A stretch of 64,000 nucleotides of DNA. Source: Candidatus Saccharimonadales bacterium. GTDB lineage: Bacteria > Patescibacteriota > Saccharimonadia > Saccharimonadales > UBA4665. Below the pieces are notes generated by a model. It saw nothing but the letters and a program-made list of their open reading frames with translations, made no database searches and was not told the DNA's origin. Shown here piece by piece: positions 50,575-56,713 of this stretch. Both the position numbers and the translations under genes were made by a program. Every line of letters begins with the position of its first letter. Position 1 is the first letter of the stretch. The stretch lies in contig DASZYD010000013.1 of NCBI GenBank assembly GCA_035545555.1, forward strand, positions 5,725 through 69,724, written 5' to 3'.

Positions 50575-50904
50575 TTACACTTCCAGAAACACGGTGACGA
50601 CATTGCTGTGGACCTGCATCACGCCGCCGGAAATCTTGATGCGAATCTCGCCTTCTTTGGTCTGCAGCACCAAATCGGACGAATTGAGCAGCGTGATGAA
50701 GTTGCGATGCCGCGGCAGAATATCGAACGCGCCGGTGCCGTTCACGCCGGACACACTGACCGCCTCGGCGTCGTAGAAGACCCGGAATGGCGACCAGACT
50801 TTGACATGCAACAGATCGTCAGCTGGTTTGGCAGCCTGCTTTGCGCCGGCCGGTTCGTCAACGGCGACCAACTGGCCCGTGCTGGCGTCGGTGCGCATTG
50901 CCAC
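50575..50904 (-). CDS. F-type ATPase epsilon-like subunit (beta-sandwich domain only)
   Basis: LLHVKVWSPFRVFYDAEAVSVSGVNGTGAFDILPRHRNFITLL..SDLVLQ...GEIRIKISGGVMQVHSNVVTVFLE parallels the AtpC N-domain (L.V.IV.P...F......V..P...G..GILP.H.P......G...I.......V.GGF.EV..N.V.IL). It has no C-terminal helical hairpin. Confidence 0.7.
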   Translation of the reverse strand: MAMRTDASTGQLVAVDEPAGAKQAAKPADDLLHVKVWSPFRVFYDAEAVSVSGVNGTGAFDILPRHRNFITLLNSSDLVLQTKEGEIRIKISGGVMQVHSNVVTVFLEV

Positions 50905-50930
50905 GGCCTAGAGTCTCCTCACACTGCACA

Positions 50931-52244
50931 TCAGACGATGATCTCCTCCACGCCGCGCAGCGTTTCGTCACGCGTGAATGATTCACCCTTATAGGCGGTC
51001 TGGTTCTCGACTACGTGCAGGTTCTGCGAGAAGTATTTGATGAGCTTTTTGGCTTTGGCATAGTCAGCGCGGTCGGCCGCCGACAGCTCGTTTTCACCGA
51101 TAATGGCAATAATGCCCTTCAGCGATTCGTACTTCTGCAGCAGCGCCTGCACCTGCACGCTCAGCACATAGTGGCGCTCGCCCACGATGTCCGGACTGAG
51201 CAAAGAGGAGCTGGTGCGGATAAGGTCCACCGCAGGGCGGATGCCCTGTTCGGCCACCTGGCGGCTGAGGACGATGGTGCTGTCCAACTCATGCTGGATC
51301 ATCTGCACCGCCGGATCGCTCAGGTCGTCGGCCGGCACATAGATCGTTTGCACTGCTGTGATAGAACCGTGGTCTGAAGAGCTGAGGCGGTCCTGCAGCA
51401 TTTTGACATCAGAGAAAATGGTCGGTTCATAGCCACCCTCGGACGGCACCTCGCTGAGCAGGGTCGACACCTCGTTCTTGGCCTGCACAAAGCGGTACAT
51501 GTTGTCGGCGAAGAACAGTACGTCTTTTTTGAGATCGTCGCGGAAGTACTCAGCCAGCGTCACCGCCGACATGCCCACCAGCGAACGCTGCACCGGGTTC
51601 TGGTCCATCTGGCCGAACAGCATGGCGGTATTTTTGAGGAGGCCGCGCTGCTGCAGCGTCTCGTAGAGCTCGTGCCCCTCGCGGATACGCTCGCCGATGC
51701 CGGCAAACAGGCTGAGGCCGCTGCCGCTCTTGGCGATGTTGTGGATCAGCTCCATGGTCAGCACCGTCTTGCCGACGCCGGCGCCGCCGATAATACCGAT
51801 CTTGCGCCCCTTTACGAATGGGGTGAAGAAGTCGATCACCTTCAGCCCGGTTTCCAGAATCTCCGGCTTCGCAGCCAGCGCAAATGATGCCACACCGGCA
51901 GCCGGCCGGTAGATGCTCCGCCGGGCCAGACTATTCGGTAGGTTGCCCAGCCCGTCGATAGGGTTGCCGAGTGCGTCAACGACGCGGCCGATCAGCTCCT
52001 GGCCCACCGGGATCTCAATATGTTTGCCCGTATCAACCACAGCTATGCCTTTTTGCAGTGTCCGGTCGGCGTGAACATTGAGGCAGCGGGCGCGGCGGCC
52101 ATCGTACAGACTGTCGACCAAGAGTAGCGCCTGGCTGGCCGTGTCGGCCACCAGCAGGTCGTGTACTTCCGGCAGGATGTCATCAAACTCAACGATTACC
52201 ACCAGGTCACGAATGGCAGCAATGACGCCGCGTGTGCCGTTCAT
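50931..52244 (-). CDS. F1 ATPase beta-like catalytic subunit (divergent, 437 aa)
   Basis: Carries P-loop [16 protein letters not shown] (canonical GERTREG), Walker B context [12 protein letters not shown] (canonical DVLLFIDNIFRF), [11 protein letters not shown] and IRPAVD. Clearly AtpD-like but shortened and diverged. Confidence 0.85.
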
Positions 52245-53119
52245 AGCACTGCCGCCCCCTGCCGGATACCGTTGATCGTCTCCTTCAGACGCTCATCGGC
52301 CGTGGCTCGCTTCGCCCGGTTGTAGGCCAGGTTGATGAGCCGCTGTGACTCGGCTGCTTTATCGTTCGCCACATTCATCGAGCGGAAACGCGAGGCGTAC
52401 TGCGCCAGCTTGGATTCCAGAATGGTCTGGCTCAGGGCAATCTCTACCATCGAGCGCTCCAGGTGCGCCACGACGGCAAACGTGCTTGGCTCAAAAATAT
52501 AGGTCGCTTCATTGATGGTATCTTCCTCTTCTTTCAGCCGGCGTCCGGCCTCTTGCACGGCAGTGCGTAGTTCAATCTTTTTGATGTCCTGTACCATCAG
52601 CGAGACGTAGGTCTGGTAATAGACGGTGGTGTTGCGGTACTCGTGCACGAACTGTACCAGCGGCGTCACGTTGATATTCTGGTCACGTGCCGGCAGCTTG
52701 AAGTATTTCTTAAACTTCACACCGGCCTGCACCAGTTGCAGCGCGCCATGGTGGCCAACGATTATGATGTCCTGCTTCTCGGGGTTATATTCTTTGAGCA
52801 TCCACTCGATGAGCTTCTGGTCGATATCGCCGCTAAAGCCGCCCTCGGCGGTGATGGCAATGATGAGCTCTTTGTCGATAACGTGCTCGTTAGTCTCGCG
52901 ACCGTAGCGGAAGGTGCGGTCAACGCGGATCTGGCTGTAAATGTGCCACAATTCCTCAAAGAATGCCTGGCTGAGCTGCACCTGGTTCTTGATCTGCCCC
53001 AGCCGCATGCTGGCCAAACCTTCGAACACGCTGGTGATGGTGACGATCACGCCCAGGTCATTCTTCTCTTGCGCCAGGTCAAGCAGCCGTTTCATTTCCG
53101 TACCTCTTGGGCGGGCCAT
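52241..53119 (-). CDS. F1 ATPase gamma-like subunit
   Basis: Carries [12 protein letters not shown] (canonical ITSDRGLCGG.N), FEPS, and the C-terminal helix ...[50 protein letters not shown]. The original start is probably the ATG at 53095 (MKRLLDL...); see the repeat at 53092. Confidence 0.8.
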
Positions 53120-53245
53120 GAGACAAACCCTTGCAGGGTTTTTCTCATCGGAGCTGGCGGAGTGAATCCGCCTCCCGTCTGCGACGGGACCGCCCTTGCT
53201 CTTTTCCCAAATAACCGGCTACTGATCATTTCCGTACCTCTTGGG
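53092..53245. repeat. exact 20-bp direct repeat (53092-53111 and 53226-53245) bracketing a 114-bp hairpin-rich intergenic insert
   Basis: TCATTTCCGTACCTCTTGGG occurs twice. On the coding strand it contains GGTACGGAAATGA, which is the alpha stop at one copy and the gamma ATG region at the other. The spacer holds three stem-loops: GAGACAAACCCT/AGGGTTTTTCTC, GGCGGA/TCCGCC and TCCCGTC/GACGGGA. Confidence 0.85.
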
Positions 53246-55209: not shown

Positions 55210-55212
55210 AGC

Positions 55213-55839
55213 CTACGCTCCGCGGCTGATATCTTCCAATATCGCACGTTTATTCGTCTCAAGTTCGCCAAGAATGTACTCCAGCTGATCGCCCAGATTG
55301 ATCTGGTTGCCGATGGCCGTCATGAGATAATGGTTGACGATTGTCGCGGTGTTGTCGGTAAAGCGCTGGATGATCTGCGCCTTCTCGGCTGCAATCTGCT
55401 CCTGCACCTGTTTGCTCAGCTGGGCGCGCTGTTCGTCGATGGCCTGGTTCGTCTTCTGGATGGAGTCGATGGCGAGCTGCTTGGCGTCCATGATCGACTG
55501 CTCATACTTGGCAAACTCTTCCTGCAGCTTCTTGGTGATCTCCGCCTTCATGTACTCGTTCAGCTGGCTGGTCGTCAGGCGCAGGTCCTGCTGCAGAAAC
55601 ATCGCGTTCTCACCGATGATCTTCTCGAAGTGCAGGCGGCCGCGGTTGCGCAGCTCTTCGCGGAACTCGGCATTGAAGATGTGTTCGACGTCTTCCTCGG
55701 CTGCTTTGCTATAGTCGGCAACGGCTTTCTTGGCCGGGCGGACGCCGGCGGCGCTTCCCAGACGCACCGCCACCCAGACGAACGCCAGCCCTGCGGCCCC
55801 CAAGATGCCGAGCATTCCGCCGAGCCACCAAATCGTCAT
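55213..55839 (-). CDS. F-type ATPase b-like peripheral stalk subunit
   Basis: One N-terminal TM helix (WWLGGMLGILGAAGLAFVWVAV), then ~170 aa of heptad-like charged helix. Called from position and architecture, not sequence identity. Confidence 0.6.
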   Translation of the reverse strand: MTIWWLGGMLGILGAAGLAFVWVAVRLGSAAGVRPAKKAVADYSKAAEEDVEHIFNAEFREELRNRGRLHFEKIIGENAMFLQQDLRLTTSQLNEYMKAEITKKLQEEFAKYEQSIMDAKQLAIDSIQKTNQAIDEQRAQLSKQVQEQIAAEKAQIIQRFTDNTATIVNHYLMTAIGNQINLGDQLEYILGELETNKRAILEDISRGA

Positions 55840-55867
55840 GTCTTTATACCCACCGCCCTGCTTACGC

Positions 55868-56713
55868 TTATAACCTTAGTAACAAATATACCGCAAACAG
55901 ACCAATGATTAAAATGGTCACACTGGTAAGGATGATCTGGACCAGCCCGCGCACGATTGACTGCTTGGCAAGCGGGTTACGGCCGATCGAGATAATACTG
56001 CCGCGCACCCCGCTGTACAGCACACCGCCGGCGATGAGCGCGGTAATGGCCAGCACCGCCAGGCTCAGCCAAACGCGCGGTGCGCTAACCGGTTTAGCGG
56101 CGATGGAGTTGCCCGCCACCTGCAGAAAGCCGGGCAGATTGCCGGTGCCATGGCCCAGGTTCGGGTTGCCCGCCACGTTCAGATCGACCGGAATACTGCC
56201 GATGGCTACCGTCTGTTTGCCGCTGCCCGTTTGCAGCGTCGCCGTGCTCACGGTATTGCCGGCGCCGGTAAACGCAACCGCGGCTTTGCCCAGCACGATG
56301 ATCTGGCTGTTGTCGGCTTTCATGCCGACACCATTGAGCGCGGAAATGGTAATGTAATCGCCAACGCTGATAGCCCCGTTCTGGTTGCTCACCAGCACGC
56401 TGTAGCGGCCGGAGGTAGCTACATAGACCTGAGCCGTATCACCGTTGCCTGTCAGCGATAGTGGCGCGTCACTGGCCGGGATGGACACGCCGAGCATTGC
56501 GGTGTCACGGTCGTTCGTCAGCGGTATGACCTTGGTCGTATCGTGCGGATCGAGCCCTACGATCATCCCCTGCCGAATCGCCGTCCCCGCATCATAGGCC
56601 GTCACGACCGGTGACCCGCTGGTCGTCGCACTGGCAGCCACAGCCACACCGGCCGCCCCCACCGGTAAAAGGAGTACGGCAAACGCGAGTACGATACGGC
56701 GAAGCGTAAACAT
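55868..56713 (-). CDS. secreted ~200-aa beta-rich domain fused to a c-subunit-like TM hairpin (occupies the atpE slot)
   Basis: The signal peptide (LLLPVGAAGVAVAAS) is followed by a soluble domain and a C-terminal hairpin, WLSLAVLAITALIAGGVLYSGVRGSIISIGRNPLAKQSIVRGLVQIILTSVTILIIGLFAVYLLLRL. The hairpin has a GRNP loop (canonical c subunits: A-R-Q/N-P) and 34 residues from the loop Pro to the C-terminus, the same as in Bacillus-type c subunits. Neither helix contains Asp or Glu. Confidence 0.6.
   Translation of the reverse strand: MFTLRRIVLAFAVLLLPVGAAGVAVAASATTSGSPVVTAYDAGTAIRQGMIVGLDPHDTTKVIPLTNDRDTAMLGVSIPASDAPLSLTGNGDTAQVYVATSGRYSVLVSNQNGAISVGDYITISALNGVGMKADNSQIIVLGKAAVAFTGAGNTVSTATLQTGSGKQTVAIGSIPVDLNVAGNPNLGHGTGNLPGFLQVAGNSIAAKPVSAPRVWLSLAVLAITALIAGGVLYSGVRGSIISIGRNPLAKQSIVRGLVQIILTSVTILIIGLFAVYLLLRL

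Follow-up and report, generated by a model that had tools for sequence, protein, structure and literature searches.

An F1-type ATPase gene cluster in Candidatus Saccharimonadales

The DNA analysed here, called the window throughout, is a stretch of 64 kb (positions 5,725 to 69,724 of contig DASZYD010000013.1; G+C content about 60%) from a metagenome-assembled genome of Candidatus Saccharimonadales, a Candidate Phyla Radiation (CPR) lineage. It carries on the minus strand, at 50575-56713, an operon of seven open reading frames (ORFs) that resembles the operon of an F-type ATP synthase. The source contig measures 85 kb, and the 281-amino-acid (aa) protein encoded by the first gene is 100% identical to NCBI entry VHC98_01305. 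This protein, which we call ecto-c, occupies the place of the c-subunit gene atpE, and behind it come ORFs for b-like, delta-like, alpha, gamma and beta proteins and a short epsilon. An earlier note on this DNA, made from its letters and reading frames, had described seven packed minus-strand genes in canonical atp order, and all seven ORFs were recovered as described. The features of the cluster are as follows.

55868..56713, minus strand: ecto-c protein, 281 aa, comprising signal peptide, beta-rich ectodomain, amphipathic helix and carboxylate-free c-like hairpin; no match in Pfam or NCBIfam
56633..56713, minus strand: signal peptide of ecto-c, about aa 1-27, with an AVA-AS cleavage-like site, a transmembrane (TM) prediction and a helix at 2-19 in the structural model
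56174..56605, minus strand: ectodomain of ecto-c, about aa 37-180, with a phage cement/capsid-decoration-like fold (Foldseek)
55871..56083, minus strand: c-like TM hairpin of ecto-c, aa 211-281, with helices 211-245 and 247-280
55967..55984, minus strand: cytoplasmic loop G-R-N-P-L-A of ecto-c, aa 244-249, corresponding by alignment to the R-Q/N-P loop of subunit c
55213..55839, minus strand: b-like peripheral-stalk protein, 208 aa, with an N-terminal TM helix and a long coiled coil
54646..55209, minus strand: delta/OSCP-like protein, 187 aa, the C-terminal domain alone being recognisable
53226..54653, minus strand: F1 alpha-like subunit, 475 aa, with Pfam, NCBIfam and PDB matches
52241..53119, minus strand: F1 gamma-like central stalk, 292 aa, with Pfam and NCBIfam matches
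50931..52244, minus strand: F1 beta-like catalytic subunit, 437 aa, with Pfam, NCBIfam and PDB matches
50575..50904, minus strand: epsilon-like subunit, 109 aa, beta-sandwich alone
56722..56750, minus strand: weak promoter-like site, TTGCCT-17-TATACT, a short way upstream of the ecto-c start

From ecto-c to epsilon, successive genes are separated by 28, 3, -8 (overlap), 106, -4 (overlap) and 26 nt, and the gene 29 nt upstream of ecto-c is, as had been noted, a class-V aminotransferase/cysteine desulfurase (E 1e-59). The scan for promoters and terminators gave no excess over chance, with 3 promoter-like sites found against 3.3 expected.

In profile searches alpha and beta both matched Pfam ATP-synt_ab (E 4e-63 and 6e-65, respectively), gamma matched Pfam ATP-synt (E 9e-26) and, under the cut-off, NCBIfam ATPsyn_F1gamma (E 5e-21), and epsilon matched Pfam ATP-synt_DE_N alone, over residues 32-106 of 109 (E 2e-14). 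The best relatives in the PDB are chains of ordinary bacterial F1 (beta, E 3e-112; alpha, E 5e-95). All recognisable subunits of the operon scored under the NCBIfam equivalog cut-offs, the scores and cut-offs being 377.9/484.45 for atpA, 449.5/462.85 for atpD, 75.6/194.45 for atpG, 38.7/67.25 for atpC and 22.7/57.5 for atpH. The earlier note had called every subunit strongly diverged or shortened; this stands as regards the equivalog scores and the reduced epsilon and delta, but part of the divergence, exemplified by GERIREG in beta, is a trait of the whole clade. Compared with a canonical PDB chain, residue 16 of alpha aligns to residue 27, i.e., the N-terminal helix that binds the stalk (delta) is about 11 residues shorter, and beta lacks about 25 C-terminal residues and has ENELSAAD in place of DELSEED. 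Epsilon is without its C-terminal helical domain in all lineages in which the cluster was found (orthologues 80-115 aa, median 87-109 aa); in bacterial enzymes these helices inhibit ATP hydrolysis.

The elements of a catalytic alpha3beta3 head, namely the P-loops, the catalytic Glu/Arg and the alpha Arg finger, are all present in the window proteins, and so are the motifs from which a hydrolysis-competent head had been proposed (GDSKSGKST and MRPAV in alpha, and the DNMYRF context in beta). Among orthologues, the P-loop and Arg finger of alpha are invariant in 69 of 69 sequences, and the P-loop, GERIREG and Walker-B Asp of beta are invariant in 61 of 61 true betas. Because these catalytic residues of alpha and beta are invariant, and appear to be under purifying selection, the F1 part reads as a working ATPase and not a relic. 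At residue 336 of beta the adenine-stacking aromatic (GIYPAVD) is replaced by Arg (GIRPAVD), which is invariant in the Saccharimonadales family; the same position is Y, L or F in other CPR betas. The alpha ORF is longer in many Saccharimonadales relatives (median 517 aa vs 475 aa in the window; e.g., locus L013, 6402-8021), or else 200-1100 nt lie between alpha and gamma (L017, L051 and L058), which points to an extended C-terminus or to an additional small gene, absent from the window.

The two putative peripheral-stalk proteins are less readily placed by profile. The b-like protein has the design of a b subunit, one TM helix at the N-terminus and behind it a long coiled coil; it matched NCBIfam alt_F1F0_F0_B at E 0.004 and nothing in Pfam, its counterpart at locus L088 matched Pfam ATP-synt_B at E 1e-3, and a profile of its family found no b subunit in the PDB. 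It is also the best conserved non-catalytic protein of the cluster, above delta, epsilon and ecto-c, with about 55 invariant columns (e.g., FREELRNRGRLHFEKIIGENAMFLQQDLRLTTS); b subunits are not usually conserved to this degree, which may point to an additional surface for interactions. The delta-like protein matched Pfam OSCP (E 4e-4, C-terminal part alone) and NCBIfam ATP_synt_delta (E 1e-4), and its family profile retrieved 15 OSCP/delta chains from the PDB at E 0.006-0.15, always via the C-terminal domain.

The protein in the atpE slot had been described as a 281-aa secreted-domain protein whose C-terminal hairpin lacks the essential carboxylate, and both the structural model and the alignments bear this out. 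A Sec-type signal peptide is present in homologues from all lineages. In an AlphaFold2 model built on 20 homologues (predicted local distance difference test score, pLDDT, 71) the signal-type helix is followed by a beta-rich domain, a low-confidence linker with a short amphipathic helix, and helices 211-245 and 247-280, and the hairpin has the topology of subunit c, with the N-terminus outside and the loop cytoplasmic. Foldseek matched the ectodomain to phage cement/decoration proteins in the PDB (Pam3, BB1, Sf11, HFTV1, T1, XM1, TW1 and lambda gpD; E down to 1e-5, TM-scores 0.5-0.65 normalised to target) and to 77 viral entries of BFVD at E <= 1e-3, and some ecto-c homologues weakly match Pfam XM1_gp53_minor_capsid (E 1.6e-4 and 3e-3) or Phage_cement_2. 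The conserved motif of this domain is GDYI(T/S)xSxxxGxGxKA. In phages, the cement/decoration fold locks onto protein lattices.

The hairpin was matched by Foldseek to c subunits of Chloroflexus, mammals and Ilyobacter, with TM-scores of 0.81-0.87 normalised to target and a root-mean-square deviation of 1.2-1.6 Å over 66-69 residues, in agreement with the earlier description of a c-like C-terminus. Its alignment with canonical c subunits is gap-free and brings the GRNP loop into register with ARQP/ARNP; this loop is invariant in 82 members of the Saccharimonadales family and in five deeply diverged lineages, and Microgenomatia hairpins read GVE[SAG]IGRNP vs xxE[GS][IV]ARQP in canonical subunits. 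By sequence the GRNP loop corresponds to the c-subunit loop that contacts gamma/epsilon. When hairpins including the Microgenomatia copies were compared with c subunits, hhalign gave a probability of 43.5% (P 2.4e-4, 42 in-register columns), and in one orthologue, from Daviesbacteria, the whole Pfam ATP-synt_C model matched the hairpin at E 0.0068 (17 bits vs a gathering cut-off of 24). Operon slot, topology, the loop, the predicted fold and faint profile matches together make it probable that the hairpin is homologous to subunit c. No Asp or Glu occurs in the second TM helix of the hairpin in any of 82 Saccharimonadales family members or 79 complete metagenome hairpins; the carboxylate position (loop Arg+20) is V/L/I/M in the former and I/V/A/F/T/G/L/S in the latter.

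Conservation across CPR lineages and the search for subunit a

The earlier note had framed the locus as a single unusual operon, and this framing has to be given up. Ecto-c has more than 1171 homologues, with relatives in at least 269 GTDB species (one genome per species scanned), and nearly all taxon-named records are Saccharibacteria. Among about 80 genome loci that were fetched, every one has the seven genes in colinear order. A metagenome scan with the cross-lineage alignment gave more than 600 pattern matches and at least 539 relatives, with the operon on hundreds of contigs from groundwater, and 80 of the loci were kept; where these reach as far as epsilon, 30 of 31 are colinear (epsilon median 87 aa). 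A seven-gene arrangement that recurs in this way is far beyond chance. Deviating arrangements were seen at two metagenome loci, with ecto-c after epsilon instead of ahead of b (L125) or convergent with epsilon-beta-gamma (L123). At a further locus, from a complete Saccharibacteria genome (L058, CP064992.1, 9950-16700), the ecto-c, b-like, gamma and epsilon ORFs look truncated or split; these look like indel errors of a long-read assembly rather than pseudogenes.

The nearest betas outside the family were retrieved by an exhaustive HMMER search with the window beta against 1.84 billion representatives, and their contigs showed an atypical operon in every readable case. In the group of P0127 (loci L089/L090; GC 37%; adjoining rplJ/rplL), a 304-aa ecto-c homologue with 31% identity (E 1e-12), whose hairpin ends ...GIGRNPLARRSILLYTGFNIIIVIVIIILGIGASLLLVRL, is followed by coiled-coil, OSCP-like, alpha, gamma and beta proteins and a 115-aa epsilon. 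The same architecture was found for P0126 (L091; GC 36%; adjoining rplA), for Candidatus Woykebacteria RBG_13_40_15 (L093) and for Candidatus Daviesbacteria RIFCSPHIGHO2_01_FULL_44_29 (L094), and the betas of the latter two are labelled by NCBI as 'F0F1 ATP synthase subunit beta'. A fifth group, P0122, is represented by locus L088 (JGI Ga0558079_0000135), where b-like, delta-like, alpha (562 aa), gamma, beta (718 aa) and epsilon (62 aa) genes lie at 5713-12409 with neither an a nor a c-like gene within 10 kb; betas of this type are the closest non-family relatives of the window beta (48-52% identity). The alpha and beta of L088 carry long P/Q/S/T-rich disordered C-terminal tails. A P0122 beta had been considered as the canonical beta of Saccharimonadales and was rejected, as it belongs to Microgenomatia-type atypical operons. 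In a crude neighbour-joining tree of betas, computed without support values, all verified a-less betas form one clade apart from ordinary bacterial betas. Flanking genes differ among the lineages (rplJ/rplL, rplA, LeuRS or Wzy outside Saccharimonadales), and since no neighbour is common to the lineages, the seven genes form a conserved unit in their own right. The module is ancient and widespread in CPR bacteria, at least in Saccharimonadia and Microgenomatia.

Such conservation bears directly on the idea that the cluster has no function and is what remains of an ATP synthase operon in decay. The streamlining of CPR genomes would fit this, as would the report that CPR may possess 'minimal complexes', 30% of the CPR sampled being without genes for a canonical complex, which was interpreted as gene loss (PMC10656485); in addition, the canonical atp genes of Southlakia epibionticum are all dispensable for growth. 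Against decay, hundreds of genomes keep the seven genes colinear, with intact and translationally coupled ORFs, the catalytic residues and the many b-like columns mentioned above are invariant, and ecto-c is conserved from Saccharimonadia to Microgenomatia. Because of this conservation, we consider the remnant explanation effectively refuted.

In agreement with the earlier note, no subunit a was found in the operon or anywhere in the 64-kb window. For this search a non-overlapping gene set of the whole window was combined with TM-helix prediction; the ORFs with at least four TM helices were Peptidase_M48, YdjM and an ABC transporter only, and the sole small two-TM ORF (70 aa) was SecG. The motif R-[LIVM]-F-[GA]-N, the context of the a-subunit Arg, occurred in no membrane ORF of the window. 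The search was extended to related loci, 175 in number and 2.18 Mb in extent (including 85 genome and 80 metagenome loci), and subunit a was found in none of them; no a or c gene lay within 10 kb in any of about 80 Saccharibacteria genome loci, nor was a found with the module in Woykebacteria, Daviesbacteria and two further lineages. In the 80 metagenome loci, none of 13 unassigned ORFs with at least four TM helices was a-like by sequence (one type is site-2-protease-like, with HExxH), and the small two-helix ORFs were SecE-like or spurious. The survey of relatives that the earlier note had proposed placed atpB next to none of about 160 orthologous operons. The fetched loci also held no second alpha/beta pair, which is uninformative for distant genome positions.

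With regard to ordinary F1Fo in this group, Southlakia epibionticum has a canonical operon of atpZ, a (PF00119), a 70-aa c (PF00137), b, delta, alpha (511 aa), gamma, beta (458 aa) and epsilon. BlastKOALA counts of KEGG Orthology (KO) assignments, published in Table S5 of PMC12592800, give atpA=atpD=atpG=2 and atpB=atpE=atpF=atpC=1 in three complete genomes (Ca. Saccharimonas aalborgensis, GWC2_44_17 and Ca. Mycosynbacter amalyticus), one of each atp KO in TM7x and RAAC3, and, in genomes of the order CAILAD01, no a, b or c KO and nothing beyond alpha, beta, gamma and epsilon. The two-to-one pattern passes without comment in that paper. It is the footprint expected of the module and suggests that some genomes carry the module together with a canonical F1Fo and others the module alone. 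In Saccharimonadales it is probably a second, paralogous machine beside the ordinary operon, and in some lineages it may be the sole F-type ATPase. S. aalborgensis itself was not among the best 120 matches of the Microsaccharimonas ecto-c protein. The earlier note had taken atpB and atpE encoded elsewhere, as the only other atp genes, to mean a split ordinary synthase; what the KO table shows is not such orphans but a second full alpha/beta/gamma set, perhaps that of the module, beside one a/b/c set.

These counts are also relevant to an explanation under which the cluster encodes the organism's ordinary and only ATP synthase, very diverged, with a located elsewhere in a split operon, c extended, and ions passing via an unrecognised site. 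Bacteria commonly have split atp operons, the models that alpha and beta score nearest to are the canonical atpA and atpD ones, and in the L088-type cluster, which has neither a nor c nearby, part of Fo could lie elsewhere. The CAILAD01 genomes with their one alpha/beta/gamma/epsilon set, and a polar Asn/Gln conserved about five residues cytoplasmic of the canonical ion site, would fit as well. To our knowledge, however, a membrane carboxylate is indispensable to every F-, N-, A- and V-type rotor, and none is found in about 160 homologues from five lineages; the conserved amide is no substitute, as an amide cannot carry H+. The CAILAD01 genomes with a single set have no KO-detectable a, b or c anywhere, the two alpha/beta/gamma sets vs one a/b/c set in three complete genomes fit a second machine, canonical Saccharibacteria operons are normal and have a 70-aa c matching PF00137, and the epsilon of the module is without its regulatory domain. 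A highly diverged ordinary synthase is for these reasons quite improbable. More generally, with no a found and no membrane carboxylate in any homologue, the module is very unlikely to work as an ion-coupled ATP synthase, and the earlier proposal that it could be something other than an ATP synthase is supported.

A candidate rotary ATPase without ion coupling

The F1 part, judged by NCBIfam scores, is nearest to canonical F-type enzymes, then to N-type and then to the two mycoplasma F1-like families. With bacterial F1Fo (atpIBEFHAGDC) the module shares the gene order from the c slot on, the F1 folds and catalytic motifs, a single-TM coiled-coil b-type stalk, the delta C-terminal domain and a c-type hairpin with an R-N/Q-P loop. 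It differs in that it is without subunit a and AtpI/Z, and in that its c-like protein, of 250-300 aa, bears a signal peptide and an ectodomain and is without the essential Asp/Glu, whereas canonical c has about 70-90 aa with a mid-membrane Asp/Glu; furthermore, epsilon is without C-terminal helices, delta has a reduced N-domain and alpha a reduced N-terminal helix, and in Saccharimonadales beta is C-terminally shortened with an altered DELSEED. N-ATPase (atpDCQRBEFAG) is likewise a second F-type operon beside the canonical one in some genomes, and the alt_F1F0 models match alpha, beta, gamma and epsilon of the window; N-ATPase, in contrast, keeps a and a carboxylate-bearing (Na+-type) c, has AtpQ/AtpR and is without delta, and the window operon has another gene order, no Q, R or a genes, and a beta score of 418 vs a cut-off of 752. 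The Type 2 G1-ATPase, the gliding motor of Mycoplasma mobile, resembles the module in being an F1-derived ATPase used for mechanical work instead of ion coupling, and the G1 beta chain 9io5_A is among the PDB matches of the window beta (E 4e-85). It forms, however, a cytoplasmic dimeric chain with PGK, has a beta with a large N-terminal extension and has neither a c-like ring nor a b/delta stalk; the window beta has just 437 aa, and NCBIfam glide scores (MMOB1660/1670-type) are 311 vs 600 and 340 vs 850. NCBIfam scores together with gene content exclude identity of the module with N-ATPase, mycoplasma Type 2 or Type 3, or FliI/T3SS.

The closest functional parallel is the Type 3 F1-like X0 ATPase of mycoplasmas (MSC_0618-0624 / MMCAP2_0575-0581), a seven-gene system without a or c that is linked to MIB-MIP, coexists with a genuine F1Fo and has a surface function in a genome-reduced, host-dependent bacterium (PMC3369863). 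Both clusters number seven genes, encode proteins like alpha, beta, gamma and epsilon, are without a and canonical c, and show a reduced alpha N-terminal helix; each also includes a component that combines a signal peptide and extracellular domains with two TM helices at the C-terminus. On the other hand, the CPR module has another gene order, no 12-TM protein and no MIB-MIP genes, and it keeps b-like and delta-like stalk proteins and the c-type loop; no NCBIfam match to the 19-kDa cytoplasmic protein or the associated Type 3 families, and no multi-TM protein, was found in the operon. CPR alpha scores 275.6 vs a cut-off of 520 for MSC_0619, and beta 366.5 vs 570 for MSC_0618. Since both scores are below those against atpA and atpD, the origin of the module would be independent of the mycoplasma system, and functional analogy to Type 3 with independent origin is the best reading of this likeness.

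The same parallel underlies the principal alternative, a non-rotary or locally moving energiser in which the 281-aa protein is a static anchor or adaptor and conformational work is done on a surface complex or an export gate, in the manner of mycoplasma Type 3 with MIB-MIP or of FliI/FliJ with the flagellar export gate. Mycoplasma Type 3 does have a comparable protein, needed for a surface system; the cluster adjoins WxL/Csc-type surface genes in the window and at L088; the ectodomain fold oligomerises on lattices; and there is no subunit a to brace a stator. Against this alternative, the module has kept gamma, epsilon, a b-like stalk, a delta-like cap and the invariant GRNP loop, the parts that a rotor and stator require. 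Moreover, the surface-gene neighbourhood is not conserved in other lineages, and no sequence similarity to the mycoplasma X0 proteins was found (no NCBIfam match). On balance we regard a static energiser as unlikely.

We favour the interpretation that the cluster encodes a self-contained, membrane-anchored, F1-type rotary ATPase without ion coupling, and give it a probability of roughly 60%. In the mechanism we propose, the F1 head would hydrolyse ATP, with a central stalk free of the epsilon brake on hydrolysis; the hairpins of ecto-c would assemble into a ring under gamma/epsilon, and ATP hydrolysis would turn this ring against the b/delta stator. Since there is no ion path and no ion carrier, the output would be mechanical, delivered on the outer side of the membrane to a crown of ectodomains, which could act on the wall, the surface layer, surface proteins or a host cell.

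Several points weigh against this interpretation. The homology between the hairpin and subunit c is statistically weak and a helical hairpin is a simple fold; a hidden Markov model of Saccharimonadales hairpins had no match in the PDB, and hhalign with close-family hairpins alone gave a probability of 1.9%. The b-like protein was assigned on architecture plus matches at E 1e-3 to 4e-3. That the hairpins form a ring, that this ring binds gamma/epsilon and that it rotates are steps that we infer. A stator without a would be held in the membrane by single helices, which raises the question of what resists rotation, and about ten ectodomains of 150 aa on a narrow ring must splay outward. In addition, the a-subunit search of the source genome spans the 64-kb window alone, and coexistence with a canonical operon in the same genome is read indirectly from the KO counts of another group.

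A wider proposal, which we hold only tentatively and with less than even confidence, is that the near-universal 'F-type ATP synthase' of CPR is in many lineages a surface-exposed rotor, an F1 spinning a carboxylate-free c-ring with phage-cement-like domains and serving the epibiotic lifestyle. The near-universal presence of an F-type ATP synthase in Patescibacteria without a respiratory chain has been called surprising (PMC11665869), and soil and sludge Saccharibacteria have been reported to carry the F-type ATPase 'to varied completeness' (PMC8407418), which was likewise interpreted as gene loss. Much of the CPR 'ATP synthase' signal may come from the module. If so, metabolic reconstructions that credit CPR with ATP synthesis linked to the proton motive force, or with proton pumping, would need revision, and the question would become testable via the seven genes, the diagnostic carboxylate-free GRNP hairpin and the Walker-A lysine of beta. 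The module would be a second case, independent of the mycoplasmas, of F1 recruited to mechanical work, the sole such case to keep both stalks and a c-like ring, a natural experiment on a c-ring without subunit a, and the first known rotary ATPase to deliver torque outside the cell without ion flux; its epibiotic uses would be attachment, surface remodelling, motility or transfer. As an F1-like ATPase divorced from ion coupling the module belongs to a known kind, and there is a fair chance that an extracellular rotor, if real, merits a category of its own. No description of the architecture was found in the full-text literature searched, which is in line with the earlier note; most subscription journals were outside its coverage, and a prior description there is possible.

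Flanking genes and other features of the window

In Saccharimonadales the operon is flanked upstream by MetRS, TatD, small ORFs and the cysteine desulfurase, and downstream by a convergent bactofilin-like TM protein and secreted proteins. Because overall synteny is high in Saccharimonadales, this arrangement says little on function; a functional link to the flanking WxL/Csc-type or bactofilin-like genes was considered as a general feature and rejected, the neighbourhood being conserved in Saccharimonadales alone. Directly after epsilon in the window lies a convergent 353-aa gene (49459-50520, plus strand) with one TM helix, beta-helical repeats and a weak Bactofilin match (E 4e-4), and a bactofilin-like gene occupies the same position in 59 of 59 Saccharimonadales loci that extend far enough. 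Beyond it, at 41301-49392 on the minus strand, is a block of secreted or anchored surface proteins that resembles Gram-positive WxL/Csc clusters. One of them (42248-43252) exceeds the cut-off for WxLIP_PGBD with 41 bits and combines a signal peptide with a C-terminal anchor, and several secreted proteins of the block end in a common ...VA(T/P)x(T/I)F motif. The flanks of L088 (12512-13483 and 17971-18975) hold the same kinds of genes, and the other CPR lineages are without them. Far from the operon, at 8800-9427 on the plus strand, the window carries a MazE antitoxin/PemK-MazF toxin pair (Pfam, E 6e-7 and 2.5e-21) in its sole clearly lower-G+C stretch (0.51 vs about 0.60), which is probably a horizontally acquired cassette.

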